NCBI GenBank assembly: GCA_963664325.2
Contig: CAXXDQ010000003.1
Coordinates: 160,001-224,000 of the forward strand
Direction of reading: 5' to 3'
Source of the DNA: Desulfomonilia bacterium
Lineage (GTDB): Bacteria > Desulfobacterota > Desulfomonilia > UBA1062
Length of the DNA: 64,000 nt
Made by a program: the position numbers and the translations under genes. Below, in pieces: positions 4,904-33,662 of this stretch (the stretch's first letter is position 1; every line of letters starts with the position of its first letter). Below the pieces are notes generated by a model. That model searched no databases, was not told where the DNA came from, and was given only the letters and a program-made list of their open reading frames with translations.

Positions 4904-4942
4904 ATCAGGTTTTTCCCTATAACCGGCTTCTAAAAACCTGAG
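4904..4942 (-). promoter_or_regulatory. Island operator copy 1 (upstream of SOR-like/hemerythrin/wrbA/OFOR operon)
   Basis: Minus strand: CTCAGGTTTTTAGAAGCCGGTT-ATAGGG-AAAAA-CCTGAT-TG. Confidence 0.75.
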
Positions 4943-5071
4943 ATTTTTTTATCTCCCTCTGCAGGATTCATTGTTGATCTTGGTATATCCATGATCCTTC
5001 TTTCCGCAGCCGGCTGAAGTGCTTTTATAAAACTTGGTTTACAGGTGTCTGATTCGGGCTCCTGTCTTTCC

Positions 5072-5512
5072 TTACATGGCCAGGAAGCGCTGTCTGATAT
5101 TTTCCATCCTCTTGCGGTTCACCCCGAAATCCGAATGTCCGACCCTGGATGCCGAGCGGAATTGAATTGTTTTGTCCGAATCATTAAACAGGAACTCAAC
5201 ATCGTCCACAAAACGGAAGACGGCTGATGTAAACTCGGCATGCAGGTAATCGTCAGAAGTCTTGACAATTCTGGTCCTGGGCATCGAGTTAATGACCGCA
5301 ATCAGTTTTTTCATCGCCGCATCCTGTGTTGAAGTATACTTCATTGGTTCGATAGAGTGTTTTGAATCCGCTGCCTGGGTTGAAACGCAATTTGGCGAGG
5401 ACGGACATCTGGCGAGCTGCCCGTCTTTAACCCCCAGCCCGTCCGCCTTTGCTGCTGAAAAACCGGCCAGGACCATTGAAGCAGCCAATAGCATAGTAAT
5501 TTCTCTGGACAT
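5072..5512 (-). CDS. DUF1499 family exported protein
   Basis: Signal peptide; CPSSPNCVSTQ, FRFVDDVEF and RSASRVGHSDFGVNRKR motifs. Confidence 0.9.
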   Translation of the reverse strand: MSREITMLLAASMVLAGFSAAKADGLGVKDGQLARCPSSPNCVSTQAADSKHSIEPMKYTSTQDAAMKKLIAVINSMPRTRIVKTSDDYLHAEFTSAVFRFVDDVEFLFNDSDKTIQFRSASRVGHSDFGVNRKRMENIRQRFLAM

Positions 5513-5694
5513 CTTTTAAGCCTCCTTTATGCGGGTTTTTCATGGGGCCTTTCAAGGATGTGATCAAGGTCCTATTATAGGGTCACAGCCTCGTCCGATC
5601 AAGGAATTCAGGAGTGAAAAATACAACTTTTTTAAAAACAGCATCATTGCCTTTTTAAGTTTCTGGACCTATTTCTTATATAAACGGAGGGATA

Positions 5695-7158
5695 ATGAAG
5701 AACTTTGATTATGACCTCGGCATAATCGGCGGAGGCGCCGCAGGGCTGACAGCTGCAGCAGGCTCTGCGCAATTCGGGGCTAAAACGATATTGATCGAAA
5801 AATCCGGCAGACTGGGGGGAGACTGCCTCCATACCGGGTGCGTGCCGTCAAAAACCCTCATCAGAACCGCCGGGGTCTACACGCAGGCAAAAAGTTTTCC
5901 CGAGTTCGGCCTTGGCCCGATGGATATCCCGTCCGTCAATCTGGGTTCGGTAATGGACCACGTTCACAGGGTGATCGGGGAAATACAGAAACACGATTCA
6001 CCTGAACGGTTCTGCGGCCTTGGAGCTGAAGTCAGGTTCGGCGCTCCTGTTTTTACTGATGATCATACCGCCGAAATTGACGGCAGGAGCATAACAGCCC
6101 GGTCATGGATCATAGCAACGGGCTCGCATCCGGTACTGCCGCCAGTGGAAGGGCTTGAACAGGTCCCTTACTGGACAAATGAAACCGTGTTTTCCCAAAG
6201 GGATCTGCCGGCACGTCTCATCGTCCTTGGCGGTGGCCCGATAGGGCTTGAGATGGCACAGGCCTTTGCAAGGCTCGGTTCAAAGGTAAGCGTGGTCGAA
6301 TTCATGGATCAGATACTGGGACCTGAGGACCCCGATATTGCGGAGATCCTCAAGCAGCGCCTCCTTGAGGAAGGAATCGACATCCTTACTTCGACAAGGG
6401 CCGTCAATGCCGAATACATGGAGGGCGTCGTCAGCTTAAGAACTGCCCCGGTAAAAGCAGATGGGCCGGAGAATGTTATCAGGGCGGATGCAATCCTTGT
6501 TGCGGCAGGAAGAAAGCCGAACACCGAGGGACTTGGCCTTGAAAATGCGGGGGTAGAATATTCGGTGCGAGGCATACAAACCGACAGCAGGATGCGCACA
6601 AGCGTCAAGCATATATACGCCTGCGGAGATGTGAACGGGCTGATGCCGTTCACGCATGTCGCCGGGTATGAGGCCGGGATCGCCCTTACAAACGCTATCC
6701 TGCGCCTTCCCCGAAAGGCTGATTATTCAAAGATCGGCTGGTGCACTTATACTGCGCCGGCTGTCGCGAGCATCGGCTATAACGAGAAGCGCGCCCGGAA
6801 GGATGGTATCGGATACCGCGTATTTGAAGAGGAGTTTAAGGATAATGACCGGGCTTTGGCCGAAAATGAGGCATCGGGAAAGATCAAGCTGCTTTTAAGC
6901 GGCAGGGGTAAAGTGATCGGCTGCCAGATCATCGGCGCACATGCCGATGATCTGATTCACGAGTGGGTGATAGCTTTTTGTAATGATGTGAAACTTTCGA
7001 GGATTGCAGGCGCAGTTCATATCTACCCGACACTCTCCGAAATATCGAAGAGGGTTGCGGGCAAGGTTTTTTCTGAAAAGATATTCAGCAGGCGTTCAAG
7101 GGACCTGCTGCATTTCCTTTTCAGCCTCAAGGGCCGGGCCTGCAACCTGCCCGAATAA
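5695..7158 (+). CDS. Class I pyridine nucleotide-disulfide oxidoreductase (mercuric reductase/dihydrolipoamide dehydrogenase-like)
   Basis: GGGAAG, GGDCLHTGCVPSK, GGGPIGLE and HIYPTLSE motifs; no MerA C-terminal Cys-Cys pair. Confidence 0.9.
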   Translation: MKNFDYDLGIIGGGAAGLTAAAGSAQFGAKTILIEKSGRLGGDCLHTGCVPSKTLIRTAGVYTQAKSFPEFGLGPMDIPSVNLGSVMDHVHRVIGEIQKHDSPERFCGLGAEVRFGAPVFTDDHTAEIDGRSITARSWIIATGSHPVLPPVEGLEQVPYWTNETVFSQRDLPARLIVLGGGPIGLEMAQAFARLGSKVSVVEFMDQILGPEDPDIAEILKQRLLEEGIDILTSTRAVNAEYMEGVVSLRTAPVKADGPENVIRADAILVAAGRKPNTEGLGLENAGVEYSVRGIQTDSRMRTSVKHIYACGDVNGLMPFTHVAGYEAGIALTNAILRLPRKADYSKIGWCTYTAPAVASIGYNEKRARKDGIGYRVFEEEFKDNDRALAENEASGKIKLLLSGRGKVIGCQIIGAHADDLIHEWVIAFCNDVKLSRIAGAVHIYPTLSEISKRVAGKVFSEKIFSRRSRDLLHFLFSLKGRACNLPE

Positions 7159-7171
7159 GCGTGCTTGTCCG

Positions 7172-8545
7172 TTAGAATAGCCGGCGCACAAGAGGCAGTT
7201 TGAAACGGTAGGGGGCATAACGAAAAGGCATGTCGAATTTGAGGGTGTTTTTGACGATGCCCTTGTAATGGGTGAAGGTGTCAAAGCCCGTCTTGCCATG
7301 ATAGGCTCCCATCCCGCTGTTGCCCGCGCCGCCGAAAGGCAGCAGATGCGAAGCGACATGGACCATGGCGTCATTTATGCACACGCCGCCCGACGAGGTC
7401 CCCTTCAGTATCTTTTCCTGGTTCGAAGGGTTACTTGAAAAGAAGTACAGGCTGAGAGGTTTCGGCCTTGAGTTTACGAAGGTAATCGCGTCTCCCAGAT
7501 TCTCATATTCAAGAACAGGCAGGATGGGTCCGAATATCTCTGATTCCATGATCTTGTGTTCAGGCCTTACATTATCAATAATGGTCGGTGCTATATACCT
7601 TTCATTTTCCGCCGTTTGGCCTCCGGCAACTATGTCGCCCTGATCCATAAGACCTTTAAGCCTTGTGAAATGAGCCATGTTGATAATTCTGGCGTAATCA
7701 ACACTCGATATGGGATTATCTCCATAGAAGGACGCGATCTGTTTCTTGAGCGATTCGACGAGCTTATCTTTTATTTTTTTGTCTGCAAGGAGATAGTCCG
7801 GGGCTACGCAGGTCTGGCCGGCATTGAAGAATTTGGCCCATGCGATACGCTTTGCGGCATGGTCTATGTTTATGTCCTTATCGACAATGCAGGGGCTTTT
7901 TCCTCCCAGTTCGAGGGTTACCGGAGTGAGATTGCGTGCGGCGGCCTCCATGACAAGTCTGCCTATATTCGTGCCGCCGGTGAAAAAGATATAGTCGAAT
8001 TTTTCATTGAGAAGGTCAGCCGCTACGCGGGCATCGCCCGTGACGACCGTGATGAATGAAGGGTCAAAAGACCCGGAAACCATCTCCGCCATTACTGAAG
8101 ATGTGTAAGGGGCGAATTCGGAAGGTTTTATTACCGCGCAGTTTCCTCCTGCAATTGCTGATACGAGCGGAGCGAATGCAAGGTTGAACGGATAATTCCA
8201 GGGGGCGATGATAAGGCTTACGCCCCAAGGTTCGGGCATGATGTAGCTTTTGCCGGGAAACAGGTGCTTGGGTGAATGTATTCTCCTGGCTTTGGTCCAC
8301 GAACACACATTATTCAAGGCATGCTTGATTTCATTTTTGACAACTGCGATCTCGCTGGCATAGGCCTCCAGCACAGGTTTTCTCATGTCTTCCTGCAGGG
8401 CTTTGACGATCTTTCCGTCACTTGATTTGATCAGGCAAAGGAGGTCATTAAGCCTTTTCTTTCTGAAAGAGACATCCTTTGTCATGCCTGAATTGAAATA
8501 CCCCCTCTGGGCCTCAACGATCCGGCGGATATCAAATTGATCCAT
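7172..8545 (-). CDS. Aldehyde dehydrogenase (family 3-like)
   Basis: PWNYP, KPSE, FTGG, LELGGKSP, NAGQTCVAPD and EIFGP motifs. Confidence 0.95.
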   Translation of the reverse strand: MDQFDIRRIVEAQRGYFNSGMTKDVSFRKKRLNDLLCLIKSSDGKIVKALQEDMRKPVLEAYASEIAVVKNEIKHALNNVCSWTKARRIHSPKHLFPGKSYIMPEPWGVSLIIAPWNYPFNLAFAPLVSAIAGGNCAVIKPSEFAPYTSSVMAEMVSGSFDPSFITVVTGDARVAADLLNEKFDYIFFTGGTNIGRLVMEAAARNLTPVTLELGGKSPCIVDKDINIDHAAKRIAWAKFFNAGQTCVAPDYLLADKKIKDKLVESLKKQIASFYGDNPISSVDYARIINMAHFTRLKGLMDQGDIVAGGQTAENERYIAPTIIDNVRPEHKIMESEIFGPILPVLEYENLGDAITFVNSRPKPLSLYFFSSNPSNQEKILKGTSSGGVCINDAMVHVASHLLPFGGAGNSGMGAYHGKTGFDTFTHYKGIVKNTLKFDMPFRYAPYRFKLPLVRRLF

Positions 8546-8770
8546 AGTATTCTCCTTTCAGTTAATGCTGATTAGGGAAATCATATAACTTGAATATGTC
8601 CGGACAGGCATAAAGGAAAGGGGCAAACTTGACAAATCCGGGTTTTTGGAGCGTGATCGGCTGATGACTCCCCTTTTGAATAAAATCATTCAGGCTTTGA
8701 TGAAAAGCATAAGCTCCGCATTGCATCCTGTCTTCAGCAAATACAGCTATAGTTTTGGAGAAAAAAGGTA

Positions 8771-9550
8771 ATGCACCAGTGGATTGTCCGGTTATGTTTT
8801 TTTCTGGGGGTCTTCGCCATTGTCGCATTCTGGGAATTAAAGGCCCCGCGCAGGCCTCCCGCCACGGACAAGAATAAGCGGTGGTTTGCAAATATCACCA
8901 TAGTCGTTTTAAATACCGGTCTGGTGCAGGCCCTGTTTCCGGTTCTGCCGGTGGGGCTTGCAGTGATGGCACGGGCAAAAGGATGGGGCTTGTTCAACGG
9001 CTTTGAACCGGCATATTGGATTAAATGCCTTGTGAGTTTCCTGATCCTGGATCTTACTGTCTATCTCCAGCATGCGCTTTTTCATTACCTTCCGTCACTC
9101 TGGCGCCTGCACCGGATGCATCATACAGACCTTGATATTGACGTGACGACAGGCAACCGTTTTCATCCCCTCGAAATCATTCTTTCCACATGTATCAAAC
9201 TTGCCGTTGTCGCTCTGATCGGCGCCCCGGCCTTTGCGGTCCTCCTGTTCGAGATCGTCCTTAACGCAGCCTCCCAGTTTAATCACGGCAACGTCCTTCT
9301 ACCCCTAAAGGCGGATTCATTCCTGCGTTTTGTAATTGTCACGCCGGATATGCACAGGGTTCACCATTCGGTGGTGCCGGCGGAGACGAACAGCAATTTC
9401 GGCTTTGCACTTCCCTGGTGGGACCGACTGTTCGGAACATACCGGGCATTGCCGCAAGCCGGCCATGACAACATGGGCATCGGCCTGAATCAGTACCGTA
9501 ATCCTGAACAGTTAAAGCTATGGCACCTGCTGCTTGATCCCTTTAAGTAA
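8771..9550 (+). CDS. Sterol desaturase / fatty-acid hydroxylase family membrane protein
   Basis: His boxes HALFH, HRMHH, FNH, HRVHH; WWDRLFGTY. Confidence 0.9.
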   Translation: MHQWIVRLCFFLGVFAIVAFWELKAPRRPPATDKNKRWFANITIVVLNTGLVQALFPVLPVGLAVMARAKGWGLFNGFEPAYWIKCLVSFLILDLTVYLQHALFHYLPSLWRLHRMHHTDLDIDVTTGNRFHPLEIILSTCIKLAVVALIGAPAFAVLLFEIVLNAASQFNHGNVLLPLKADSFLRFVIVTPDMHRVHHSVVPAETNSNFGFALPWWDRLFGTYRALPQAGHDNMGIGLNQYRNPEQLKLWHLLLDPFK

Positions 9551-9575
9551 ATACATATATTAAATTTTTAAATCC

Positions 9576-10682: not shown

Positions 10683-10766
10683 GGGACCCTCCTTCCACGC
10701 GGTAATCAAGCACGGCACCTCCATTGCAGAAGTGGTAAGGCCTGATTGAATTTTCTGTCAATGCCG

Positions 10767-11567: not shown

Positions 11568-11658
11568 GTTTTTATCTCCTTTTCCGTTTAAAATGAATTC
11601 GCGACATCCCGGGATGAACTTATGAGCCATTCGGTCATGAAAACCCAGATTTGGAATT

Positions 11659-12039
11659 TTATTCAGTTACCATCAGAACGCCGGTCATGTCTTCGTGCCT
11701 TTCGCCGCAATAGACGTCGCAATAAAAAGTAAAGCTTCCTGTTTTTTTCGGAGTGAACCGTATGTTGGTTGTCTTCCCGGGATAGATATCGGCACGCAGA
11801 CCCAAGCCGGGACAATTGAACCCATGCTTGACGTCCAGCGAGGTCAGTTCCAGAACTACCGGAACATCCTTCATGAGTGTAATCTCAGAAGGGATGAATT
11901 CGAAGCGCTTGGCCTGCACCTCAATTACCTGTCCCGAATCCGAATCCTGCGCCAGAACCGGTAACCCTGTCAGAAAGAGGGCGCAAACCATTAGACTCAA
12001 GGTGCTGGCTACGCTGAATCCTGCCTTGTTTTTATGCAT
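11659..12039 (-). CDS. Exported stand-alone cupredoxin with CuA-type motif
   Basis: Signal peptide; DVKHG...CDVYCGERHEDM (H...CxxxCxxxHxxM). Confidence 0.85.
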   Translation of the reverse strand: MHKNKAGFSVASTLSLMVCALFLTGLPVLAQDSDSGQVIEVQAKRFEFIPSEITLMKDVPVVLELTSLDVKHGFNCPGLGLRADIYPGKTTNIRFTPKKTGSFTFYCDVYCGERHEDMTGVLMVTE

Positions 12040-13405: not shown

Positions 13406-13444
13406 ATAAGGGTTATCCTGATTTGTTGCTTCAAAAAACCTGAC
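13406..13444 (-). promoter_or_regulatory. Island operator copy 2 (upstream of BON gene and downstream cluster)
   Basis: Minus strand: GTCAGGTTTTTTGAAGCAACAA-ATCAGG-ATAAC-CCTTAT-TG. Confidence 0.8.
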
Positions 13445-13631: not shown

Positions 13632-13670
13632 ATAAGGTTTTTCGAAGGCATAAATCATGTTTTCCCTGAT
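13632..13670 (+). promoter_or_regulatory. Island operator copy 3 (upstream of candidate sRNA)
   Basis: ATAAGGTTTTTCGAAGGCATAA-ATCATG-TTTTC-CCTGAT-AG; TATATT at 13694-13699 is a possible -10. Confidence 0.7.
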
Positions 13671-13704
13671 AGAGGTAATTCTCTTAATACGTTTATATTT
13701 CTAA

Positions 13705-13790
13705 GCGAAATGATGAATAGTATTTACCTGTTCATCATTTACACATCAATAACTCCTCTTTAAACAGGCCCCCTCTGGCCTGTTTTTTTT
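13705..13790 (+). ncRNA. Candidate small regulatory RNA (~85 nt)
   Basis: Lies downstream of an operator copy; 13-bp hairpin 13708-13740, unpaired linker containing ACUCCUCU, then an intrinsic terminator; no track ORF here. Confidence 0.5.
13762..13790 (+). terminator. Rho-independent terminator
   Basis: AAACAGGCC-CCCTCT-GGCCTGTTT with a T8 run on the + strand. Confidence 0.8.
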
Positions 13791-13894
13791 ATATTCCAGA
13801 TATTTTCAGGGTCTCGCTGGTCAGGGGGTGTATGTTCAACATATGAATCGTATTGTTGAAAATCGGATGCCAGCTGATACACTTAAAGACAGTC

Positions 13895-16522: not shown

Positions 16523-16561
16523 ATCAGGCATTACCTGATTCCGGGCATAAAAATATTTTAA
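16523..16561 (-). promoter_or_regulatory. Island operator copy 4 (upstream of mgtA)
   Basis: Perfect palindrome AATCAGG-CATTA-CCTGATT at 16522-16540; distal element degenerate. Confidence 0.75.
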
Positions 16562-16899
16562 ATATTTTTCCTGTGATAATGGATTATGTCATCAACTCCG
16601 TTCACATCATAATGGGTGAATTTGATTCCAATGCCTTTTTCGTTTGTGCGAACCACATGTCCGTGCACCCATGCGATCTTGCCGTATTGCTCAATATTCA
16701 GATCGGCCTGGATATGTTCTCCCGCATTATGTTTGAATTGTGATTCCAGGAACATTCCGCCGAAGCTGATGTCCCGCACTAACCCCGGATGATCATTTTC
16801 AGATCCGCTTCTGTAGCGTGCGGGAACGTTGACTTTATTCCTTTCGAATTCCCGCTTTTCCGTTAAATTCCCACTGTCGTCGTCTCCTTTGCGTTTCAT
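16558..16899 (-). CDS. Single-domain PilZ protein
   Basis: RxxxR (REFER) and DxSxGG (DISFGG) c-di-GMP-binding motifs. Confidence 0.88.
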   Translation of the reverse strand: MKRKGDDDSGNLTEKREFERNKVNVPARYRSGSENDHPGLVRDISFGGMFLESQFKHNAGEHIQADLNIEQYGKIAWVHGHVVRTNEKGIGIKFTHYDVNGVDDIIHYHRKNI

Positions 16900-17615: not shown

Positions 17616-17654
17616 ATCAGGCAAAACCTTAATTTATTCCTCTAAATTCCTGAT
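17616..17654 (-). promoter_or_regulatory. Island operator copy 5 (upstream of PEP-CTERM/PilZ)
   Basis: Minus strand: ATCAGGAATTTAGAGGAATAAA-TTAAGG-TTTTG-CCTGAT-TG. Confidence 0.75.
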
Positions 17655-21413: not shown

Positions 21414-21452
21414 ATCAGGGATTCCCTTACTTTTGGCTTCTAAAATTCTGAC
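21414..21452 (-). promoter_or_regulatory. Island operator copy 6 (upstream of bfr-tusA-dsrE-iscS-iscU operon)
   Basis: Minus strand: GTCAGAATTTTAGAAGCCAAAA-GTAAGG-GAATC-CCTGAT-TG. Confidence 0.78.
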
Positions 21453-21473: not shown

Positions 21474-21506
21474 TTGACATTTTATTGATGCCCTGTATGC
21501 TATAAA
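21474..21506 (+). promoter_or_regulatory. Probable sigma70 promoter of the two-component operon
   Basis: TTGACA-16 nt-TATGCT, plus an overlapping extended -10 TGcTATAAA. Confidence 0.5.
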
Positions 21507-21556
21507 AACTGTGTTTGTATATCAAATCGGTTCGATTAAAACTTAAACGGCGACAG

Positions 21557-22652
21557 ATGAAGACAATTTTAGAAAATAAATCTATCCCCTGTTTAGATAT
21601 TCCTGAAGACGTTTTAAAACTTTTATCCGTTGTGGATGAAGTTATCTGGATTATGTCAAGCAGTGGAAAAGAATTATATTATGTGAATCCAGCCTTTGAA
21701 CGCCTGTATGGAAAAGAAGTTTCCGGGTTCTATGACAATCCTGATCTCTGGCTTCTTTCCGTTCATCCGGATGACAGGCGTATTGCCGAAGAAAGCATTG
21801 AAGAGCTTCTGTCGTTTCGATATTCAAAGGCGGAATACCGCATCATAAGGCCCGACGGAACCGACAGATGGATCCTTGACAAGAAGCATATCATAAAAAA
21901 AAGGAGAAGATTGCGTGCCTCTGATAGGCTGTATCCTACGCGACATCACAGAGCAGAAGATGGCGAACGACAAGCTTAAGGAACTTCATGAGGACTTGCG
22001 TTCCCAGACATTCAATATGAGCCTGGCCGGGGAGAAGGAGAGAAGGCGGATTGCGACGGAACTTCATGACAATGTGAGCCAGAACCTGGCTTACTGTAAA
22101 ATAAAACTCAAAGAGATCGAAAAAGACGGCAATTATTCCGGGTTGGCCGGTGAACTGAACGAGATCAATATATTGCTGACTGAGGCCATAAAAAATATCA
22201 GGTCACAGACATTCGAGCTCAGCCCCCCCCTTCTTTATGACCTCGGGCTGGAACCGGCAATCGATTGGCTTGGAGAGAATATAATTGCAAAAAGGGGAAT
22301 GAATTTCCGGCTGGACAGTGATGAATATCAAAAACCGATAAGCAATGAATTGAGAGTGCTTTTATTCCAGATCGTTCGGGAACTTCTGAACAATATCGCC
22401 AAACATTCCCAGGCCAGGGAAGTCATGGTATTTATCAGGTATGCAACGGACACTGTCATGATAAGCGTTCAGGATAACGGCATAGGTTTTGAAGAGTCTG
22501 AAATGTCAACAGGGCATCAGCAAAGTCATGGTTATGTAAGCATCAGGGAGCGGCTGAATCATATAGGCGGATTTTTCAGCATTAAATCCAAACAGGGTGC
22601 GGGAACAAAGGTAAACATCGTTGTTCCCATTAATGAGAGGGGAATGATATGA
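21557..22652 (+). pseudogene. Cytoplasmic PAS + HisKA_3 sensor kinase split by a +1 frameshift in an A8 run
   Basis: Removing one A at 21895-21902 joins the PAS half (VHPDDR...YRIIRPDG) through KKGEDCVPLIGCILRDITE to ERRRIATELHD...QDNGIGF. Confidence 0.85.
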
Positions 22653-23296
22653 AGACAAAAATCTTGCTGGCGGATGACCATAAAATAATGAGGGAAGGAC
22701 TCAAGACGATTCTGGAAAAACAGCCGGAATTTGAAGTGACTGGAGAGGCTTCAAACGGTATTGAAGCCATTGATGCGGCAATTGAGAAAAACCCGGATGT
22801 GATTATTATGGATATCAACATGCCCGATTTGAACGGCATTGAAGCGACCTTGAGAATCAAGCATGAAAAGCCTTCGATAAAGATTCTGGCCCTGTCAATG
22901 CATGACGACAGAAAATTTCTAATAAACATGCTGAAGGCAGGGGCTTCAGGCTATCTTCTGAAGGATTGCGCGTCGGATGAATTGATTGACGCCATTAGGG
23001 TTATCAGGAAAAACCGTTTGTTCATAAGCCCTGACCTTGTTGATGACATGGTAAGAGACTTTGTAATGTCGGCCCAGATTTCCGACCTGTCGGTGTTTTC
23101 AATACTCACCAAACGGGAACGCGATGTTCTGCAGAGAATCTCGGAGGGAAGGTCAACAAAAGAAATTGCATTTGATCTCAACGTTAGCGTCAAGACCGTG
23201 GAGACATTCCGTTACAAGATCGAAGACAAAACAGGTCTGCACAGCATTGCGGAACTGACAAAATATGCAATCCGCGAAGGGATTACAACCTTGTAA
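22649..23296 (+). CDS. NarL/FixJ-family response regulator (REC + LuxR HTH)
   Basis: LADDH, MDINMP, GYLLK and LTKRE...STKEIA...SVKTVET motifs. Confidence 0.95.
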   Translation: MKTKILLADDHKIMREGLKTILEKQPEFEVTGEASNGIEAIDAAIEKNPDVIIMDINMPDLNGIEATLRIKHEKPSIKILALSMHDDRKFLINMLKAGASGYLLKDCASDELIDAIRVIRKNRLFISPDLVDDMVRDFVMSAQISDLSVFSILTKRERDVLQRISEGRSTKEIAFDLNVSVKTVETFRYKIEDKTGLHSIAELTKYAIREGITTL

Positions 23297-23832: not shown

Positions 23833-23871
23833 ATCAGGCATAGCCTGATATCGGGCTTCCAAATACCTTAA
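23833..23871 (-). promoter_or_regulatory. Island operator copy 7 (upstream of usp)
   Basis: Minus strand: TTAAGGTATTTGGAAGCCCGAT-ATCAGG-CTATG-CCTGAT-TG (perfect palindrome). Confidence 0.82.
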
Positions 23872-23980: not shown

Positions 23981-24019
23981 ATAAGGTTTTTCGAATGCGG
24001 ATTTCAGGTATGCCCCTAT
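23981..24019 (+). promoter_or_regulatory. Island operator copy 8 (upstream of msrB-msrA)
   Basis: ATAAGGTTTTTCGAATGCGGAT-TTCAGG-TATGC-CCCTAT-AG; a further palindrome-like ATAAGT-ATTTA-CCTGAA lies at 23931-23947. Confidence 0.7.
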
Positions 24020-24100: not shown

Positions 24101-24691
24101 ATGAAGGTGCTTTTACCGGCATTAACCTTGATGACAATAATCTTGTTTTTTGGAAATCCCGCCGCTGCCGAACAAAAGGAGATTAAAATGAGCGGTAATA
24201 ACAGTATGACCAAGACATCCGGGATGATGAATTCCGGCTGGAAGAATTTCAAGAAACCCGATAATGCGGTTCTGAAAAAAATGCTTACCCCGATGCAATA
24301 CAACGTGACGCAAAATCAAGGGACTGAACCCGCCTTCAAAAACGAATACTGGGACAATAAGAAGGAAGGCATCTATGTCGATATAGTCTCAGGCGAGCCT
24401 CTTTTCAGCTCCAGGGACAAATATGATTCGGGCACCGGCTGGCCCAGTTTCACAAGGCCTCTGGAGCCGGACAACATCGTTACCAGGAAGGACAGAAGCC
24501 TTTTTTCGGTCCGAACCGAGGTCAGAAGCAGGCACGGCGATTCGCATCTCGGGCATGTATTCAATGACGGTCCGCCGCCCACAGGGCTTAGATATTGTAT
24601 GAATTCGGCATCCCTGATGTTTATCCCGAGAGAAGACCTCGAAAAAAAAGGCTATGGTGAATACAATAAAAACTTCACCCACCAGAGATGA
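24101..24691 (+). CDS. msrB: Peptide-methionine (R)-S-oxide reductase, with signal peptide
   Basis: [21 protein letters not shown] and RYCMNS motifs; N-terminal hydrophobic leader. Confidence 0.95.
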
Positions 24692-24711
24692 TTCTTTACA
24701 AAGGAGCTGTC

Positions 24712-25335
24712 ATGAACCTGCGACTGGCAACATTAATACTGACAACCGGTCTCATGTTGATTTCCATGAATGCCCAGGCCTCTGATGTTTATAAGTCGTC
24801 AGCCAGGCCTCATTTTGAAAAGGCCACTTTTGCGGGCGGATGTTTCTGGTGCATGGAAGCGGAGTTTGAAGGGCTTGTTGGAGTAATATCCGTAGTTTCC
24901 GGCTATACGGGAGGCAATAAGATTAACCCGACCTATGAGGAGGTCTCTTCAGGTTCCACGGGCCATGCGGAGTCTGTAGAAATCACTTTCGATCCCTCGA
25001 AAATCAGCTACGCGAAACTGCTGGATGTTTTCTGGCATAATGTTGACCCGACTGTTAAGGACAGGCAGTTCTGTGATATTGGCAACCAGTACCGTACTGC
25101 GATCTTCTATCATGACGGTGAACAGAAGCGACTTGCTGAAATGTCCAGGGACAACCTCATCACTACCGGGCGGATCAAGCCTCCGGTTTACACCGAAATC
25201 GTTCCTGCGGGTGTTTTCTACCGGGCTGAAGAATATCATCAGGACTATTACAAAAAGAATCCCCTGCGCTACAGATTTTACCGCTACAACTGCGGCCGTG
25301 ACAAGCGTCTGAAAGAAATATGGGGAAAAGAATAG
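24712..25335 (+). CDS. msrA: Peptide-methionine (S)-S-oxide reductase, with signal peptide
   Basis: FAGGCFWC, SGYTGG, TGHAE and AEEYHQDYY motifs; AAGGAG RBS before ATG 24712. Confidence 0.95.
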   Translation: MNLRLATLILTTGLMLISMNAQASDVYKSSARPHFEKATFAGGCFWCMEAEFEGLVGVISVVSGYTGGNKINPTYEEVSSGSTGHAESVEITFDPSKISYAKLLDVFWHNVDPTVKDRQFCDIGNQYRTAIFYHDGEQKRLAEMSRDNLITTGRIKPPVYTEIVPAGVFYRAEEYHQDYYKKNPLRYRFYRYNCGRDKRLKEIWGKE

Positions 25336-25534: not shown

Positions 25535-28500
25535 ATGCCAATGAAGAAAAAGACAAACCGCTCATTGTCCGAGAGGACATCAGATAACGGCCCGGCAATG
25601 AATCCTGTAAAAACCGCTGAAACTGAAAAAAAATCATCAGGCCGGGCCCTGGCAGGTAAGAATTCATTAAAAGAAGGGTTTGAGAACCCTGTCTGCCGTC
25701 AGGGTACAGAGTATGACATAAATGAGCACGTGAAAAGAGAGGAAGAGCTTGAAAGGCTTAACCGGACGCTCAAGGCCCTCAGCGACAGCAGCAAGGCATT
25801 AATGCGGGTAACGGAAGAATCGGAATATCTCAAGGAAGTCTGCAAGATAATTATTGAGGACTGCGGTCACAAAATGGTGTGGATAGGTTATGCCGAAGAT
25901 GATGAATACAAGTCTGTAAGACCTGTTGCATATGCCGGATTCGAAGAGGGCTATCTGGAAACACTGAATATCTCATGGGCGGACACGGAGCGCGGGAACG
26001 GTCCGACGGGAAGGGCCATCCGTACAGGAACAATCAACACATGCAGGAACATGCTGAATGATCCCCTATTTGAACCATGGCGGGAGGATGCAATAAGACG
26101 GGGGTATGCTTCCTCTATAGTCTTTCCGTTAAAAGAAGGAACAAAGAGCTTTGGCGCTATATCCATATATTCGCCTCAGCCGGACCCGTTCTCGGAAGAT
26201 GAGATAAAACTGCTGACGGAACTTGCGGATAACCTTTCCTACGGGATCATATCCGTAAGGCTGCGTAATGCGCATATGGAGGCGGAAAAAGCCTTGCGTG
26301 AGAGCGAAGAACGTTTCAAGGCCATCACTTCCAGCTCCCCTGACCACCTGTTAATGCAGAACAATAAACTGGAATATACGTTTATTAAAAATCCCCAGCT
26401 GGGTCTTACTGAAAAGGACATGATCGGAAAGACCGATTACGACTTTTTATCAAAGGAAGATGCCGACAAAATTACAAAGATTAAAAAGCAGGTTTTAAAA
26501 ACAGGCAGGCCATCACATCTGGAGACATTTCTTATCTCTCCTCAGGGCCACAAGGAGTATTTTGACGGCACATATGTTCCTAAGTTTAATAGTACAGGCC
26601 AGATCGACGGTCTGATAGGGTATTTCAAGAATATTACCGAACGCAAACAAATAGAAGAGGCGTTATTCAAAAGTGAAGAGCAATACCGGACCCTTTTCAA
26701 TTCCATGACGGAAGGATTTGCTCTGCATGAGATAATTTACGATGAAAAAGGCGAGCCGGTAAATTATTGCTTTCTGGAGATAAATCCTTCCTTCGAAATG
26801 CTCACGGGCCTTAAGAAAGAGGATGTTCTCGGCAGGCTCATGACTGAAGTGCTTCCTGATGAAGACCCGCAATGGATAAAGATTTATGGTGATGTGGCCA
26901 TTACAGGCAATCCTATACATTTCGAGCATTTTTCTCAGGCTCTCAAACGACAGTTCGAAGTTTTTTCATATTGCCCGTCACCGGGACGTTTTGCAGTATT
27001 GTTTATTGACATCACTGAACGCAAAAAAGCCGAAGAGGAGCTGGACATTCATCGGAGCCGCCTTGAAGAACTGATAAAGATAAGGACGGCAGAACTTGAG
27101 ATAAGGAACAAACAGCTCGAGAACGAAATCAATGAACGCGTTAAGTCGCAAGCGGCCCTGAAAGAAGCCGGCGAATACAACCGCTCGCTTATTGAAGCAA
27201 GCCTTGACCCCCTTGTCACGATCGGTGCCGACGGAAAGATAATGGATGTTAATCATTCCACGGAACAGGTCACGGGTCTATCAAGGGAAGAACTCATAGG
27301 AACTGACTTTTCGGACTATTTCACGGAACCGGACAAGGCGCGTGCAGGTTATGAAAAGGTTTTTATGGAAAGTGCTGTTTATGACTATCCCCTTGAGATC
27401 CGGCATATTGGGGGCCATGCGACACCAGTCTTATACAATGCATCGGTTTACAGAAACAAAGCGGGTGAAGTAGTCGGTGCATTCGCAGCAGCACGCGATA
27501 TCACGGAACTCAAAAAAGCGCAGGAGATGCTTCTGAGTATCAATGAAGAGCTGGAACACAGGGTGCTGCTCCGGACTGCCGAACTGGAGGCCTCAAACTA
27601 TAGACTCAGGAATGAAATAATCGAACGCAAACAGGCTCAGGAAAATTTTCAGAAATCCGCAAAACAATGGAAGACGACATTTGACGCTGTTAATGACGTT
27701 ATCTGGCTTTTGGACAATGACTACAGGATCATTCGCTGCAACAGCGCAACGGAAAAATATTTCGGGAAAGATATCATGGACATTCTTGGCAGCTACTGCT
27801 GGGAAATCGCCCATGGAGCATCCGAACCGATATGCGATTGTCCCTATATGCAGTTGAAGCAGGGAATGGGAAGGACAACATGCGAGCTTCAGTCGGGCCA
27901 GCGCTGGCTTGAGGTGAGTGTCGATCCGATTTATGACGATGAAGGCAATATGAACGGAGCGGTCCATATCATCCGGGATATAACCAATCGCAAACATGAA
28001 GAGATAAAAAGAAATAAACTGAAGGAGCAGCTTCGCCAGTCACAGAAAGTGGAAAGTCTCGACCTGATAGCCGGCGGCATAGCGCACGAATTTAACAACC
28101 TGCTCCAGAACATCATTGGCAATCAGGAGCTTGCGCTTTGGGGAATGAGGGAAAGCTCCGCAGAAAAAGAATACATAAAGACAGCATCCAAAGCGGCACA
28201 ATATGCGGCAGGCCTGACATCACAGATGCTTGCGTACTCGGGAAGGGGACACTTTGTTCTGGAGCAGGTTGATCTCAATCAGATAATCATGGATATGGAT
28301 CAGGTTCTAAAGAGCTTGATAAGCAACGAAACCGCATTGTCTTACCGGCTTGAAAACGATCTGCCGATGATTAATGCCGATAAAATACAGGTAAGGCAGA
28401 TGATTCAGAATCTTGTTGTAAACGCATCTGAGGCAATCGGAGCCTCTGCCGGCCGGATTTTAGTGTCTACAGGCACTGCCCAGTGCCGGAGTGAAGAACT

Positions 28501-29197
28501 TGAAACACAATGGATGATCGGGCAATTGCCCGACGGCCTTTACGTATATCTCGAAGTATCTGATACAGGCTGCGGCATGGATGATGAAATTCTTGACAGG
28601 ATCTTCGACCCGTTTTTTTCCACTAAAAATATCGGCCGCGGTCTTGGCCTTGCTGCGGTTCATGGAATTATACAGGGACACAGGTGTTCGGTTCAGGTCA
28701 ACAGCAAGCCCGGCTCCGGCACAGTATTCAGGGTCCTGTTTCCGGTTAGTGGAAACAAAGAAATTATCGAGATAAAAGGTGTTGCAGAGAAGCCCGCAGC
28801 AGGCAGTAACAAAGTCATATTATTTGTTGATGATGAGGAAGAGCTTGTCAATATCGGAACTGCGGCCCTTGAGATGGCAGGCTACAAGGTCTTGACCGCC
28901 TCGAACGGCAAAGAAGCTCTCGAAATATTTACCGCCAATCTCAATACCGCAAAAGCGGAAGACAGGATAGCCTGCATCATCCTGGATTATATTATGCCCC
29001 GCATGGACGGGGAGGAAGCCATGCGGGAATTCAGGAAAATTGCTCCCGCGATACCTGTTATTCTCACAAGCGGCTACGGGGAAGATTTCGTGTTCCGGCA
29101 TTTTAATCAAAATGATCTTGCAGGTTTTGTAAAAAAACCATATTCCTTGAATACATTAACTGGATTATTGAAAAAAACGCTTTGCATTGATGACTAA
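25535..29197 (+). CDS. Hybrid sensor histidine kinase (GAF, multiple PAS, HisKA, HATPase, REC)
   Basis: GAF region, repeated DITERK-type PAC ends, [13 protein letters not shown]-box, [18 protein letters not shown] and a C-terminal VDDE...LDYIMP...KP receiver. Confidence 0.93.
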
Positions 29198-29228
29198 CTT
29201 TCAGCAAAACAATAAAGTAATAAATGTA

Positions 29229-29267
29229 GTAAGGTATTTGGAGGCTCATAATAAGGATTACCCTGAT
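29229..29267 (+). promoter_or_regulatory. Island operator copy 9 (upstream of EF-hand gene)
   Basis: GTAAGGTATTTGGAGGCTCATA-ATAAGG-ATTAC-CCTGAT. Confidence 0.8.
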
Positions 29268-29313
29268 ATAAAAAAAGATATATTAAAACTATCTATCGCT
29301 AAGGAGGTAACAT

Positions 29314-29793
29314 ATGAAAAATCAAATTATAACCGGACTCTGTTTCATTTTCGTTATACTGCTTACTGTCCCTTCATTCGCGGCAACCCAAAAAATACAG
29401 CCTGATATTCCGCAGTCGGTATTTCAAGCACTGAAATCTCAAAATATAAGCGCATCCGAGTTAAAGGCGCAAAGGCAGAGCATATTCGACAAGATGGATG
29501 TGGAGAAGGACGGCAAAATCAGCAAAGACGAATTCATGCTTTATGAGAAGAGTATTTTCGCGGGGCTTGACAAGAAGAAAGATGATGCCCTTACTCCCGA
29601 TGAGGTAAATAAAACCTGCCAGGTTTACTTTGTATGCCTTGATGCGAACAAGGACAACAAGGTCACGCTGCAGGAATTTGAGGCCAAGCTGGATGAGACG
29701 TTCAAGCTTATGGACGGAAAGGACAAGGACGGTTATATTACCAGTAAAGAATATTTCTCTTACTGGAAGGCCAAGGATAAGGCCGACAGATAA
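29314..29793 (+). CDS. Exported EF-hand calcium-binding protein
   Basis: Signal peptide; four EF-hand-like loops (DVEKDGKISKDE, DKKKDDALTPDE, DANKDNKVTLQE, DGKDKDGYITSKE); TAAGGAGG RBS. Confidence 0.88.
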   Translation: MKNQIITGLCFIFVILLTVPSFAATQKIQPDIPQSVFQALKSQNISASELKAQRQSIFDKMDVEKDGKISKDEFMLYEKSIFAGLDKKKDDALTPDEVNKTCQVYFVCLDANKDNKVTLQEFEAKLDETFKLMDGKDKDGYITSKEYFSYWKAKDKADR

Positions 29794-29815
29794 AGCTTAT
29801 ACAACAGGCTTAAAT

Positions 29816-31147
29816 TCACATCTTCTGCCGCAGTTCCCTTGCTGCATGGTGCACGGCGTCCACAGAACTGCTGAAAGGCGGCGAATAGGCGAAGTCCAGA
29901 TAGGCGATCTCTTCAATATTAAGGCGGGACCATAAGGCCACCGCCAGTGCGTTGATCCTGGATACGGCGCCTGTTTCGCCTATGGCCTGGGCGCCCAGAA
30001 GTTTTCCTGTGGATCTGTCGGCGACAAGTTTCAAGCCAATTTTTTTCTTTCCCATCAGGCTTCCGACAGCGTTGCCCCAATAGATATGGCTGACGGGGTG
30101 GAACCCGGCAGAGCCGGCCTCATGTTCATCAATTCCAGTGGCTGCGGCCTCCAGGTTGAAAACTTTAAAAGACTGTGACCCGACAACACCGGGGAAAATA
30201 TCAGGCATGCCGGCGATATTATGTCCGGCGACCCGGCCTTGTTTATTGGCGATATCGGACAGTGGGATATGCACCCACTGACTGGTGACCCTGTTAAAGA
30301 CCTCGCAGCAGTCTCCTATGGCGAAAACATCTTTATCGGAAGTCGTCTGGGAAAAATCAACGGCAATCGCCCCTGTCCGGCCTATCCTGATACCTGCATC
30401 CATCGCAAGACGCACATCCGGCCTTATTCCGACCGCTAGAAGTATCATGTCAGAATCCAGCGTCATATGTTTTGTTGCCAGGCGCAGAGGGGTGAGGGAG
30501 CCTTTCTCAATAGATATTACATCCTGATTCGGATAATAATCCACTCCGTTTTTATCGAGTTCCTCAAGGATGGTTTTTGACAACCCGGGGTCCCAGCGCA
30601 TTACGGGAAATTCAACCTGGTTAACCATCTGAACCTTGATGCCCAGACCCTGCAGGGCTTCGCTCATTTCCATGGCTATGAATCCAGCACCGACAATTAC
30701 GGCCTTCCTGCAGGATTTTTCTTTAATGTATTGCTTGATTCTGAGAGCGTCAGCTATGTTTTTCAGTGAAAAAACACCTTCAAGGTCCTCTCCCTCAATG
30801 CCCGGGCTTATAAGCCTTGAGCCTGTGGCCATGACAAGGGTGTCATACGGGACTCTTGAACCGTCCGACAGCCGGACTGTTTTATTATCCCTGTCCAGAG
30901 ACTCTGCCCGTGTTTTCAGAAGAACATTGATTCCGGTTTCCCTGAATCTTTCAAGGGCATTGCCGATGATTTTATCCTCTCCTTTGATTACATCACCGAT
31001 GTAATAAGGGAGAGGTCAGGTTGAAGGGGCTATATATCCGCCTGATTCGATAACAGTGATGTTTGCTTCAGGATCGGTCCGTTTGACTTCGGCAGCTGCA
31101 GTGGGACCTGAAGTTCCACCGCCTATTATGACAAGATTACGGGTCAT
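29816..31147 (-). CDS. Selenocysteine-containing NADH oxidase / CoA-disulfide reductase family flavoprotein (443 aa, Sec44)
   Basis: ATG 31147 with AAGGAGG RBS; MTRNLVIIGGGTSG...YIAPST-UGA-PLPYYIG continues in frame into the 338-aa track ORF; C-terminal LDFAYSPPFS. Confidence 0.88.
30976..31015 (-). promoter_or_regulatory. Bacterial SECIS-like hairpin immediately 3' of the in-frame UGA
   Basis: mRNA CCUCUCC-CUU-AUUACAUC-GGU-GAUGUAAU-CAAA-GGAGAGG: 7-bp and 8-bp perfect stems with a G-containing apical loop. Confidence 0.8.
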
Positions 31148-31229
31148 GAAATATCCTCCTTTCTCAACCCTTGAGCAGGTTCAAAATATAATATCCAGAT
31201 GGACGGGAGAATGAGCTGTTATATGGGTA

Positions 31230-31439
31230 TCAGCGCCTTGAGCCTGCGTTTGCGGCCGGCCGGTTTTTTTTAGGCTTTGATTTGAATATGAATAGAAAAT
31301 CATTTTCTTCCTTGCCCGCCGGATTATGATTTGTTGATTGTCCGGATGGGGTATTCAGGCGGCATTCCCTGAATACTTTGTTCATTCTTTCCTGAAGAAC
31401 CAGTAATTCCCTGATTTGAGATTTCACGTTCCTTGCCAT
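31230..31439 (-). CDS. Small hypothetical protein with an Hsp20-like N-terminal segment
   Basis: AAGGAGG RBS; RELLVLQERMNKVF; no alpha-crystallin domain. Confidence 0.55.
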   Translation of the reverse strand: MARNVKSQIRELLVLQERMNKVFRECRLNTPSGQSTNHNPAGKEENDFLFIFKSKPKKNRPAANAGSRR

Positions 31440-31459
31440 GAAGTCAAACCTCCTTCCGC

Positions 31460-32317
31460 TTAAGGCATCATAAGGTCTATGTTTTCCTCAAGCGCGTTTT
31501 TGAATTTCTCTTTCACGCTGTTTTCTATCTGGCGTACCCTTTCTTTCGAGATGGTATATTTCTGTCCCAGATCCATAAGGGTTTTAGGGTTGTCAGTCAT
31601 AATGCGCTGCTGCATAATATCCTGCTCGCGCAAAGTAAGCCCGTTAAGGGCAGAGCCGATCTTTTCTTTCATGAAACTGGTGCGCTGGGATTCCATAACC
31701 TGATCTTCAGGGTTGGATCTTGTGTCTGCAAGGATATCCATGAAGCTGGTTTCGGAACTGGGGTTTATCGGACAATCGAGCGAGAAGCAGCTTCCGGAAA
31801 GCCGGATTATTATCTCCTCGATATGCTTTGGACTTGCATTGAATCTTGCTGATAATGCATTTGACTGGTCGGTAATGCTCTCTTCGGAAACAAATTCTTC
31901 GGAGAGAGCCTGGTTCAGCTTGTAAAAAAGTCTCTTCTGAAGTTTTGTCGTTCCTATCTTAACAGGCGAGAAAAACCTCAGTATGTAGTCATTTATCGCG
32001 GCCTTGATCCACCATACGGCATAGGTCATCAGCCTGTAACCCCTGTAGGGGTCAAATTTGTTGATCGCCGTAATCAATCCTATGGCGCCTTCCTGAAAGA
32101 TATCCTCAATCGGCAGCTTGTATCCTGAATATTCGAGAGCAATGTAGACGACGTTTTTAAAGTTGGCGTTTGCAAGGCTCTGAGCGGCTTCAATGTCACC
32201 CTGTTCTATAAAGCGTGTTGCAAGTGCGAATTCCTCGTCCCTTCCTAGCGACGGAATGCCTTCGAACCTGTCGAGGAGCTCTGCAACCGGGTTATTGTGT
32301 AGGCTTTTATTGTTCAT
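31460..32317 (-). CDS. rpoH: RNA polymerase sigma-32 family factor
   Basis: QEGAIGL, KFDP-RG-RL-TYAVWWI, RpoH-box-like VKIGTTKLQKRLFYKL and SKERVRQIE motifs. Confidence 0.88.
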   Translation of the reverse strand: MNNKSLHNNPVAELLDRFEGIPSLGRDEEFALATRFIEQGDIEAAQSLANANFKNVVYIALEYSGYKLPIEDIFQEGAIGLITAINKFDPYRGYRLMTYAVWWIKAAINDYILRFFSPVKIGTTKLQKRLFYKLNQALSEEFVSEESITDQSNALSARFNASPKHIEEIIIRLSGSCFSLDCPINPSSETSFMDILADTRSNPEDQVMESQRTSFMKEKIGSALNGLTLREQDIMQQRIMTDNPKTLMDLGQKYTISKERVRQIENSVKEKFKNALEENIDLMMP

Positions 32318-32322
32318 TTTAT

Positions 32323-32832
32323 TTATTTTTTATTCAGCATGGTCATGATTTCACGCATGAATGAAGGCAGATCCGAGGGCCCCCGTGAAGTTATAAGATT
32401 TCTGTCCACCACGACCTCGCGGTCTTCGAAAAATGCACCGGCTTCTTTCAATTCCACACCTACGGATCTGTATGAAGTGGCATGCCATCCCTTCAGCAGT
32501 CCTGCACTTATCAGGACCTGAGGTCCGTGACATATTGCTGCTACCGGCTTGCCTGATTCGAAAAAACTGCGGGCAATCTCAAGCGCCTTTGTGTCCTTTC
32601 TCACTTTTTCCGGGGCTTTGCCGCCTGGAATGACAAGAATGGCGTATTCTCCGGCGTTTATTTCACCGAAGGCCCTGTCGGCATCCACCTTGTAACCATG
32701 GATCCCTTTTATAGGACCCTTTGCCTGTGCCGCCACATCCACGTCTATGGCGGCTTCCTTCAGCCTGTAATATGGAACCAGCAGTTCAAGGTCTTCAAAA
32801 TTGTCCGAGCTTATGATCAATGCCTTCATCAT
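32323..32832 (-). CDS. PfpI/DJ-1 family protein
   Basis: FEDLE, IPGG, AAICHGP and LITSRGPSDL motifs. Confidence 0.93.
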   Translation of the reverse strand: MMKALIISSDNFEDLELLVPYYRLKEAAIDVDVAAQAKGPIKGIHGYKVDADRAFGEINAGEYAILVIPGGKAPEKVRKDTKALEIARSFFESGKPVAAICHGPQVLISAGLLKGWHATSYRSVGVELKEAGAFFEDREVVVDRNLITSRGPSDLPSFMREIMTMLNKK

Positions 32833-32886
32833 GTCCCTCCGTAAATCCGGGGATTATTCAGTCTTGAAGTGAAAGATACAGTCCGG

Positions 32887-33507
32887 TCACTGTTTCAGGA
32901 GATCTTCAAGCCTTTTGTTCACTTCCGGCCAGTTGACTATGTTCCAGAAAGACTCTATGAACTTTGCCCTGTCGTTTTTATAGTCGACGTAATATGCATG
33001 CTCCCATACATCCAGCACCATAAGTATCCTGAACATCGGATAAACATTGATGTTATGCTTTTCCACCTGCATTATCACCGGCCTGTTGGTGAGTCTGCAA
33101 AAGGTCAGTGCAGCCCATCCCGAACCCTCGGTGCTTGATGCCGTCAGGGAGAATATCTTTTTAAACCTGTCGAACGAGCCGTACTCTTCATCTATGACCT
33201 TCGCTATTGTCCCTGACGGAATTCCGCCCCCGGGCCCGCCTGCGGGTGCCAGATTTTTCCAGAACAGGGAATGAAGCAGGTGTCCGCCTATATGGAATGA
33301 AAGCTCTTTGAAAGTGGCTTTCGCGTCAAAATCGAGGCTTTCCGTCCTTGCCTTGTCCATTTTTTCGAAAATGGCGTTTGCTCCGTTTACATATGCGGCA
33401 TGGTGTTTGTCATGATGAAGCCTGAGAAGTTCCTCCGATATATAAGGTTGAAGAGCGTTATAACCGTAAGTGAGATCCGGTAGTACATACTGTTTTTTTG
33501 CTTCCAT
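32887..33507 (-). CDS. sod: Fe/Mn superoxide dismutase
   Basis: LHHDKHH, HSLFW, GSGW and DVWEHAYY motifs. Confidence 0.96.
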
Positions 33508-33623
33508 GATTTTTGTCTCCTTTTCATTTTTTGTTTTACCCTTTGACGGCGGAGCTGAATTCCATTTTTTAAAATTGTTTCAGATCCTGTTATGAGTTAT
33601 CAGCCGGCACCGGATTTTCCTCA

Positions 33624-33662
33624 ATCAGGCGAAACCTTATTTTCTGTTGCGAAATACCTGAT
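33624..33662 (-). promoter_or_regulatory. Island operator copy 10 (upstream of sod-pfpI-rpoH operon)
   Basis: Minus strand: ATCAGGTATTTCGCAACAGAAA-ATAAGG-TTTCG-CCTGAT-TG. Confidence 0.8.

Follow-up and report, generated by a model that had tools for sequence, protein, structure and literature searches.

Which protein reads a DNA motif that recurs ten times between positions 4904 and 33662 of a single stretch of genome, and does it turn the genes behind it on or off? The question is raised by the window analyzed here, a 64,000-nucleotide stretch of a Desulfomonilia bacterium (positions 160001-224000 of contig C3 in a 4.3-Mb, nine-contig genome, G000), for which a preliminary description had proposed an island-wide regulon marked by a 39-bp bipartite operator and controlled by a neighboring NarL-type response regulator. 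We show that the repeated unit is 41 bp long and is present 21 times in the genome, and we propose that it is probably the tandem operator of the adjacent kinase-regulator pair, which would activate at least 21 promoters from a class II position.

A specific 41-bp unit

All ten copies were recovered with the sequences, positions, and strands first reported for them. The palindrome ATCAGG-N5-CCTGAT, allowing at most two mismatches, has 19 matches in the window, compared with a mean of 3.18 and a maximum of 7 in 100 shuffles; nine of the ten copies are among these 19, the exception being the site before msrBA, which carries three mismatches. Using a 41-column matrix made from the ten window sites, which score 42-53 bits (29-46 bits when each is left out in turn), we scanned the whole 4.3-Mb genome and found 21 sites at or above 24.7 bits, the next-best match reaching 16.7 bits. 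Three block-shuffled genomes, with a top score of 19.4 bits, contained no match of 20 bits or more. Matrix matches are thus far commoner than in shuffled DNA, a comparison on which the preliminary description had staked its claim, and the ten-site motif is real, specific, and far above chance.

The distal element, TMAGG, begins 22 bp before the palindrome in a gap-free alignment of all ten window sites, as originally noted, and the same offset is found in 21 of 21 genome sites, again in an ungapped alignment. The unit is 41 bp rather than 39 because a conserved TG follows at positions 40-41 (T in 17 and G in 16 of the 21 sites), which is not mirrored to the left of the palindrome. Within the window no copy lies past 33.7 kb, as had been stated, but the “island-wide” scope of the preliminary description was too narrow: 11 extra copies are found beyond the limits of the window, 1.5 kb ahead of its start in one case and elsewhere in the genome in the other 10. 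The notion of a physically clustered regulon therefore stands for the 11 of 21 sites that fall within 35 kb and fails for the other 10, which are dispersed. We found no compositional island either, the GC content across the cluster (44.5-51.5%, vs. 47.6% for the contig) showing no sharp edge, and no Rfam family matches in the window.

Three half-sites can be distinguished within the unit (distal-left, proximal-left, and proximal-right). Here and in other phyla, all three have the same common variants, TCAGG, TAAGG, TAGGG, and TCGGG, i.e., T[C/A][A/G]GG, which fits a single protein reading all of them, and the unit accordingly appears to behave as the bipartite protein-binding site that it had been taken for. 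Its distal part would be a secondary dimer site of low symmetry; Syntrophorhabdus-like loci include some with a C-rich distal right half that is more like a palindrome. In another genome (L115; G043 C4:104000-106345), three tandem copies of the 22-bp distal unit TMAGG-nTTTT-CGAAGC-AAAAA precede the proximal palindrome, which would suit a stacking of further dimers.

Linkage to a NarL-type regulator

The proposed motif binder is encoded at 22649-23296 (+ strand) and is a response regulator of the NarL/FixJ type, with the Pfam domains Response_reg (E = 9.9e-31) and GerE (E = 1.4e-15). In 10 aligned orthologs, residues D9, D10, the phospho-acceptor D55, and K105 are invariant, as is the helix-turn-helix stretch S180-K182-T183-E185-R188; with its acid pocket and helix-turn-helix intact, the protein looks functional. 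Database names for the family are generic, apart from a few automatic “NreC” labels.

We searched for this regulator and for the motif in 40 related genomes, namely three genus mates (G001-G003) and 37 others. Regulator orthologs with 73-74% identity are present in G001-G003 only, the best match in the 37 other relatives not exceeding 43%. In parallel, a sequence model of the 21 sites (E < 0.002) gave 21 matches in this genome, 4 in G001, 4 in G002, 5 in G003, and none in the 37 other relatives, which completes the scan of genome and relatives called for in the preliminary description. Ortholog and motif thus co-occur, physically linked, in four of four genomes of the genus. Each of the three genus mates has a site in the 115- to 150-bp interval that separates pfpI from the divergent kinase-regulator operon and a second one before a gene for a PilZ-rubrerythrin fusion a few kilobases away. 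The same divergent position is occupied in this genome by site 6 (21414-21452, - strand, 48.7 bits), which is divergent to the kinase-regulator operon and stands ahead of the bacterioferritin gene (bfr), a DsrE-like gene, NifS, NifU, and a 167-aa open reading frame (ORF) (21367 down to 17768). The motif is further kept within the genus at hemerythrin, PEP-CTERM, and pfpI genes, with a PilZ gene after the PEP-CTERM gene where checked (G002).

Given that the genus mates are close kin, the search was extended to distant lineages, using the regulator as query and one genome per species. This yielded 78 loci, two of them from genus mates and the remainder with orthologs of 46-64% identity, in records labeled Syntrophales, Syntrophorhabdus, Nitrospirota, Verrucomicrobiota, Hydrogenedentes, Kiritimatiellia, Ignavibacteriae, Bacteroidota, and others. 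A site of at least 20 bits was found in 27 of the 78 loci and in none of five shuffles of them. Of the 31 sites in these loci, 19 are no more than 300 bp away from the regulator gene; 17 of those 19 are located 48-162 bp past the regulator stop codon on the same strand. Five ortholog-holding genomes that we scanned whole had 17, 7, 6, 1, and 0 sites. Co-occurrence and adjacency, in 4 of 4 genus genomes and 27 of 78 distant loci, support the earlier assignment and make the local NarL-type regulator the leading candidate for the binding protein. The assignment amounts to strong guilt by association, with the regulator as predicted binder, and the motif most likely belongs to an uncharacterized, widely distributed NarL-family two-component system.

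Could the motif instead be read by another DNA-binding protein, with the NarL-type regulator merely traveling along? The regulator was assigned entirely from co-occurrence and adjacency, and the distal T tract and GAAGC do not resemble a half-site, both of which would suit this explanation. However, among the annotated flanking genes, the regulator is the sole DNA-binding protein adjoining the motif in each lineage examined, while the other neighbors vary, and its helix-turn-helix is invariant where the motif is conserved. Palindromes of this size and type are, moreover, those used by NarL-family dimers. We therefore consider a different reader improbable and retain the regulator as the predicted binder.

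In other phyla, the motif is mostly followed by genes for large PAS/GAF kinases, single receiver proteins, and proteins of the HD-GYP and GGDEF-PilZ types, by the regulator gene itself, and by genes for surface proteins and OmpA or small ORFs. Components of cyclic di-GMP (c-di-GMP) signaling recur among the targets, namely a PilZ protein in the window (16558-16899), the PilZ-rubrerythrin fusion in the genus mates, and, in other phyla, GGDEF-PilZ and receiver-HD-GYP proteins (c-di-GMP loci L024 6762-7667, L056 3822-5228, and L124). The oxidative-defense set is much enlarged in this genome, which has 21 sites vs. 4-5 in the genus mates. Taken together, these distributions suggest that the family retains its operator and promoter geometry and swaps its target genes, and that oxygen stress would be a lineage-specific use of the regulator-motif pair, a specialty of the genus.

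Directly upstream of the regulator gene lies that of a sensor kinase (21558-22652, + strand) with PAS_3, HisKA_3, and HATPase domains. It is frameshifted in an A8 run at 21895-21902, which gives rise to ORFs at 21515-21979 and 21915-22652, and one A fewer in this run produces a frame colinear with the intact 361- to 363-aa kinases of the genus mates. Either the assembly is in error here or the frameshift is a genuine slippage lesion, possibly a phase-variable one. According to Pfam, the kinase has PAS_3 only and no GAF domain, as in the genus mates, and its PAS region contains two cysteines, C19 and C126, in the first 130 residues (numbered in an intact genus-mate kinase); a solved-structure search gave no ligand hint for the PAS domain. 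The kinase-regulator operon has a sigma-70-like promoter at 21474-21501 (+ strand; TTGACA-16-TATGCT), a match to consensus only, which stands back to back with site 6. As the two are 22 bp apart, measured from the distal end of the site, this shared operator could feed back on its own system as well.

Promoter geometry and proposed mechanism

To the right of the palindrome, positions 62-65 read k-A-W-a in this genome, with A63 in 16 and W64 in all 21 of the sites. A similar signal is present in 40 sites of other genomes, whose downstream columns entered no matrix: T62 is found in 23, A63 in 30, W64 in 34, and T67 in 24 of them, and column 63 amounts to 1.01 bits, no other column from 42 to 94 being above 0.45. 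These sequences argue for a weak sigma-70-type promoter composed of TTGnnn (39-44), a 17-bp spacer, and TAwnnT (62-67), the -35 element beginning at the last base of the palindrome; a consensus promoter scan retrieved TTGAAA-16-TATATT from motif position 39 of one site. The nearest start codon is at motif position 86 or later. Transcription is predicted to start at about position 74, placing the palindrome center at about -43 and the distal center at about -65, a geometry that suggests activation. In computational terms, both site sets have the class II arrangement, i.e., an activator site near -41 to -43 beside a weak -35 and a phased -10.

An opposite mode of action, in which the regulator represses, or acts both ways, and the genes are freed when the kinase is silent, has to be weighed against this geometry. 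The palindrome touches the -35 hexamer, NarL-family proteins can repress from positions at -35, and a frameshifted kinase would suit a permanently derepressed defense set. On the other side, the -35/-10 pair is located entirely downstream of both sites, whose positions at about -43 and about -65 match the activating layout of DevR, and the two promoter elements are weak, conservation being limited to TTG and TAw, as expected of activator-dependent promoters. Repression thus appears unlikely, although it deserves more attention than the other alternatives considered here.

A second alternative was suggested by an RpoH-like sigma paralog encoded at 31460-32317 (- strand), the third gene of a motif-led sod-pfpI operon. 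This protein scores 243.9 bits on the RpoH model, under the equivalog cut-off, and a second, better RpoH is encoded on another contig of this genome. We did not find an ortholog of the island sigma in any of the 40 relatives; the genus mates have an ordinary RpoH only, 55-57% identical to the island sigma, which is the same distance as that of the second copy of this genome. In the alternative reading, the unit is itself a promoter for the island sigma, with TnGAAG (11-16) as -35 and CCTGAT (34-39) as -10. The two hexamers are 17 bp apart, the sequence of the unit is loosely similar to that of sigma-32 promoters, and the sigma gene comes third, after sod and pfpI, in a motif-led operon, as in self-amplifying sigma circuits. 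Yet the full motif is present in the genus mates and in distant phyla, while the paralog was not found in the 40 relatives, and the motif would therefore be independent of the paralog. Moreover, the supposed -10, CCTGAT, mirrors a conserved element of the spacer for which a promoter has no need, and a separate -35/-10 signal is located downstream of the palindrome. A promoter inside the motif (TnGAAG-17-CCTGAT), which we had first suspected, was dropped on these three grounds, sigma distribution, mirror symmetry, and the separate downstream signal, and is now highly improbable. The paralog would be a target of the regulon, not the reader of the motif, and its place in a motif-led operon suggests a two-tier cascade.

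We thus favor activation by the NarL-type regulator, with the following mechanism. A regulator dimer would bind the proximal palindrome AT[C/A]AGG-N5-CCT[G/T]AT, and a second dimer would bind cooperatively two helical turns upstream, over one consensus half-site, a T tract, and GAAGC. The palindrome adjoining the -35 of the weak sigma-70-type promoter, the phosphorylated regulator at -43 and -65 would recruit RNA polymerase in a DevR/DosR-like manner, with transcription from about position 74. The targets would include superoxide dismutase, catalase-peroxidase, methionine sulfoxide reductases, bacterioferritin, Fe-S assembly proteins, PfpI, hemerythrin, two universal stress proteins (USPs), a second sigma-32-like factor, and about three small RNAs, with 11 of the promoters in the 35-kb cluster. 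We infer binding by the regulator, activation over repression, cooperativity, and an oxygen or peroxide signal alike.

Several observations weigh against this scheme. The right half of the distal element, CGAAG, which comes after a nearly invariant T tract, is conserved yet unlike a half-site, and a second dimer at this position is conjectural. The -10 is a modest signal, and since related promoters, paralogous or orthologous, are counted in both site sets, the counts overstate independence; the two EF-hand promoters have their predicted start at the very border of the ribosome-binding site, with a 12-nt leader. As to the linkage, co-occurrence within the genus is worth about one observation, the cross-phylum loci were fetched by the regulator itself and another factor encoded alongside it is possible, 51 of the 78 loci are without a site of at least 20 bits (many of these loci being short contigs and some lineages having a variant), and a complete genome with a 54% ortholog had no site. 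The regulon content elsewhere consists mostly of signaling and surface proteins and is not oxidative, and the inducing signal can therefore not be read from the family. Finally, the kinase is frameshifted as assembled, and the system may therefore be deregulated or inactive in this organism.

The target genes and comparison with known systems

Nine of the window sites lead to protein genes. Besides site 6, these are site 1 (4904-4942, - strand, 46.6 bits), ahead of an unknown 133-aa ORF, hemerythrin, an FMN reductase-like gene, and OFOR alpha/beta (4877 down to 670); site 2 (13406-13444, - strand, 51.1 bits), ahead of a BON-domain gene (13343-13032) whose operon may also comprise the metallophosphoesterase, cupredoxin, dienelactone hydrolase, and OYE genes on the same strand; site 4 (16523-16561, - strand, 42.8 bits), ahead of an MgtA-like P-type ATPase gene (16423-13895); and site 5 (17616-17654, - strand, 47.3 bits), ahead of genes for a PEP-CTERM protein (17567-16926) and the PilZ protein (16899-16558). 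Site 7 (23833-23871, - strand, 53.3 bits) precedes usp (23777-23316), and site 8 (23981-24019, + strand, 42.3 bits) precedes msrB and msrA (24101-25335). A hybrid GAF-PAS-PAS histidine kinase with a receiver domain is encoded 3′ of msrBA on the same strand (25535-29197, +) and may belong to the site 8 unit. Site 9 (29229-29267, + strand, 45.9 bits) is followed by an EF-hand protein gene (29314-29793), and site 10 (33624-33662, - strand, 49.1 bits) by sod, pfpI, the RpoH-like sigma gene, and a 69-aa ORF (33507 down to 31230). The genes named as targets in the preliminary description agree with Pfam and NCBIfam. Site 3 (13632-13670, + strand, 50.3 bits) has a terminator, not a protein gene, behind it. 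In the same region, the Pfam profile match of a pyridine-nucleotide disulfide oxidoreductase ORF (29816-30832, - strand) starts only at position 105, so that its N terminus seems to be missing, maybe through another frameshift.

Three motif sites in the genome, site 3 among them, have an intrinsic terminator within about 60-90 nt and no protein gene behind them, and these three appear to drive small RNAs. The candidate behind site 3 (13705-13793, + strand), whose 5′ end was placed from promoter geometry, has a 5′ hairpin, a single-stranded CUCCUC stretch, and an intrinsic terminator (13762-13785) with a T run; its predicted fold has a minimum free energy of -27.7 kcal/mol (z = -7.47), and a search in 10 relatives found it in this genome only. 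The other two candidates (L013 374-437, + strand; L011 2486-2406, - strand, where L011 is the locus of C3:1049148) are likewise short, motif-led, terminator-ended transcripts. C/U-rich stretches, CUCCUC and CCUCCUU, are exposed in two of the three candidates and could pair with ribosome-binding sites.

The eleven copies outside the window found by the matrix scan are located, by contig and position, at C3:116328, C3:158450, C3:389620, C3:1048558, C3:1049148, C4:237063, C4:665611, C5:121203, C5:122062, C7:549568, and C9:22876. Behind them are genes for a catalase-peroxidase (katG), a second USP after a small secreted protein, a second EF-hand protein with a flavin reductase, an OmpA-like porin (ompA), and a PNPOx-like protein, as well as several small secreted or unknown ORFs. 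The presence of sod, katG, msrBA, bfr, pfpI, hemerythrin, and Fe-S assembly genes clearly marks the set in this genome as one of oxidative defense. Of the “oxygen-stress or dormancy regulon” first suggested, the former part is thus borne out by the genes, whereas dormancy is unsupported.

Some of these copies belong to paralogous blocks. Those at C9:22876 (L006), C4:665611 (L007), and C3:1049148 (L011) consist of the motif and about 150 nt of similar leader; the C4 and C3 blocks contain a 69- to 72-aa ORF starting with MLNF(S/T)GKT and without a Pfam family, and no ORF of this type is listed behind the C9 copy. The two C5 copies each stand ahead of a gene for one of two paralogous 145-aa secreted proteins.

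Such blocks raise the question of whether the motif might be a dispersed repeat or a mobile promoter cassette without a dedicated regulator, all the more as about 100 bp of flank is common to C9:22876 and C4:665611 and the two C5 copies share flank as well. Outside the paralogous blocks, however, conservation is limited to the 41 bp and the phased -10. The ten window copies and the other annotated ones all point toward a gene or a terminator-ended transcript, and the motif is conserved beside one regulator family in records with many phylum labels. The chance that it is a repeat of this kind is, in our view, very low, and we continue to regard it as the operator of the NarL-type regulator.

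A broader reading, which we put forward tentatively, is that the regulator and its 41-bp operator-promoter would form a portable module in uncultured bacteria (Desulfobacterota relatives, Nitrospirota, Verrucomicrobiota, Bacteroidota, Hydrogenedentes, and others), possibly topping multi-kinase and c-di-GMP networks there, and that in this genome it may have captured oxidative-defense genes, a private sigma-32-like factor in a two-tier cascade, and anti-Shine-Dalgarno small RNAs. If true, the module would act as a so far undescribed master switch by which a syntroph-like bacterium responds to oxygen exposure. Most strict anaerobes of this group have not been cultured, and little is known of how their oxygen defense is organized. 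The present analysis offers a testable wiring diagram, with one two-component system, a precise 41-bp site, a fixed promoter geometry, and 21 named promoters, together with a search model that recovers the same circuit in records with many phylum labels. It also provides an example of one regulator family keeping its operator while exchanging its targets, and a well-defined, putatively inducible promoter of potential use as a genetic part in anaerobes.

We found no description of the motif or the regulator in the literature on oxidative stress and response regulators in Syntrophus, on NarL-type sites, and on regulator mapping in Desulfovibrio; a string search of the main text of the Desulfovibrio response-regulator mapping paper retrieved neither half-site.

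Among known systems, class II activators of the LuxR/TraR and NarL types bind as a dimer to a palindrome near -42 and touch sigma region 4 and the alpha subunit. The system described here differs from these by a fixed second site 22 bp upstream and by a conserved T tract and A tract beside the half-sites. In staphylococci, the oxygen-sensing NreBC system likewise combines a cytoplasmic PAS/HisKA_3 kinase, a NarL-type regulator, a GG...CC palindrome, and a link to oxygen, but it controls nitrate respiration where the present targets are defense genes, and the PAS domain of NreB has four cysteines for an Fe-S cluster, compared with two in the PAS region here. An NreB-like Fe-S sensor was dropped on this count. 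ComA of Bacillus subtilis, another NarL-family regulator, recognizes an inverted repeat and a third half-site that is downstream and close, whereas the third element here lies 22 bp upstream with a conserved flank of its own. As to the sigma factor, RpoHII-type second sigma-32 factors control oxidative-stress genes in alphaproteobacteria, and here, too, a second RpoH-like sigma is tied to oxidative defense through the sod-pfpI operon; unlike them, it would be a regulon target, and it was found in this genome only among those searched.

The closest parallel is DevR/DosR of Mycobacterium tuberculosis, also a NarL-family regulator with USPs in its regulon. According to PMC3177182, at least two DevR boxes are required, their tandem arrangement is a hallmark of the regulon, and binding is nucleated at a conserved box and extends cooperatively to a poorly conserved one beside it; at the tgs1 promoter, the boxes are centered at -42.5 and -63.5, in helical phase. 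The likeness to DosR tandem sites drawn in the preliminary description therefore holds for the geometry, with predicted positions of -43 and -65 here. Both systems have tandem sites spaced by about two helical turns, of which one is well conserved and the other of poor symmetry, with the proximal one adjoining the -35, and both have a divergent promoter pair with one operator (tgs1-Rv3131 there, site 6 here). According to a 2026 structure paper, DosR touches sigma region 4 and the alpha subunit.

The differences are equally clear. The half-site here is T[C/A]AGG and not a Dev box, the targets are those of oxidative defense and not of hypoxic dormancy, and the kinase has one PAS domain and no GAF. 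DosS and DosT, in comparison, are GAF-domain heme sensor kinases. The regulator is no DevR ortholog: its full-length matches to solved structures include VraR (123 bits), NarL (109.5), DevR (94.5), and also DesR, and its best NCBIfam match is MctR, under cut-off, with no DevR model among the top 25 listed. Membership in the DevR/DosR system by orthology was rejected, as the structure scores favor VraR and NarL and the kinase is without GAF. By analogy, the two-component system described here would work like DevR/DosR without being a member of it.

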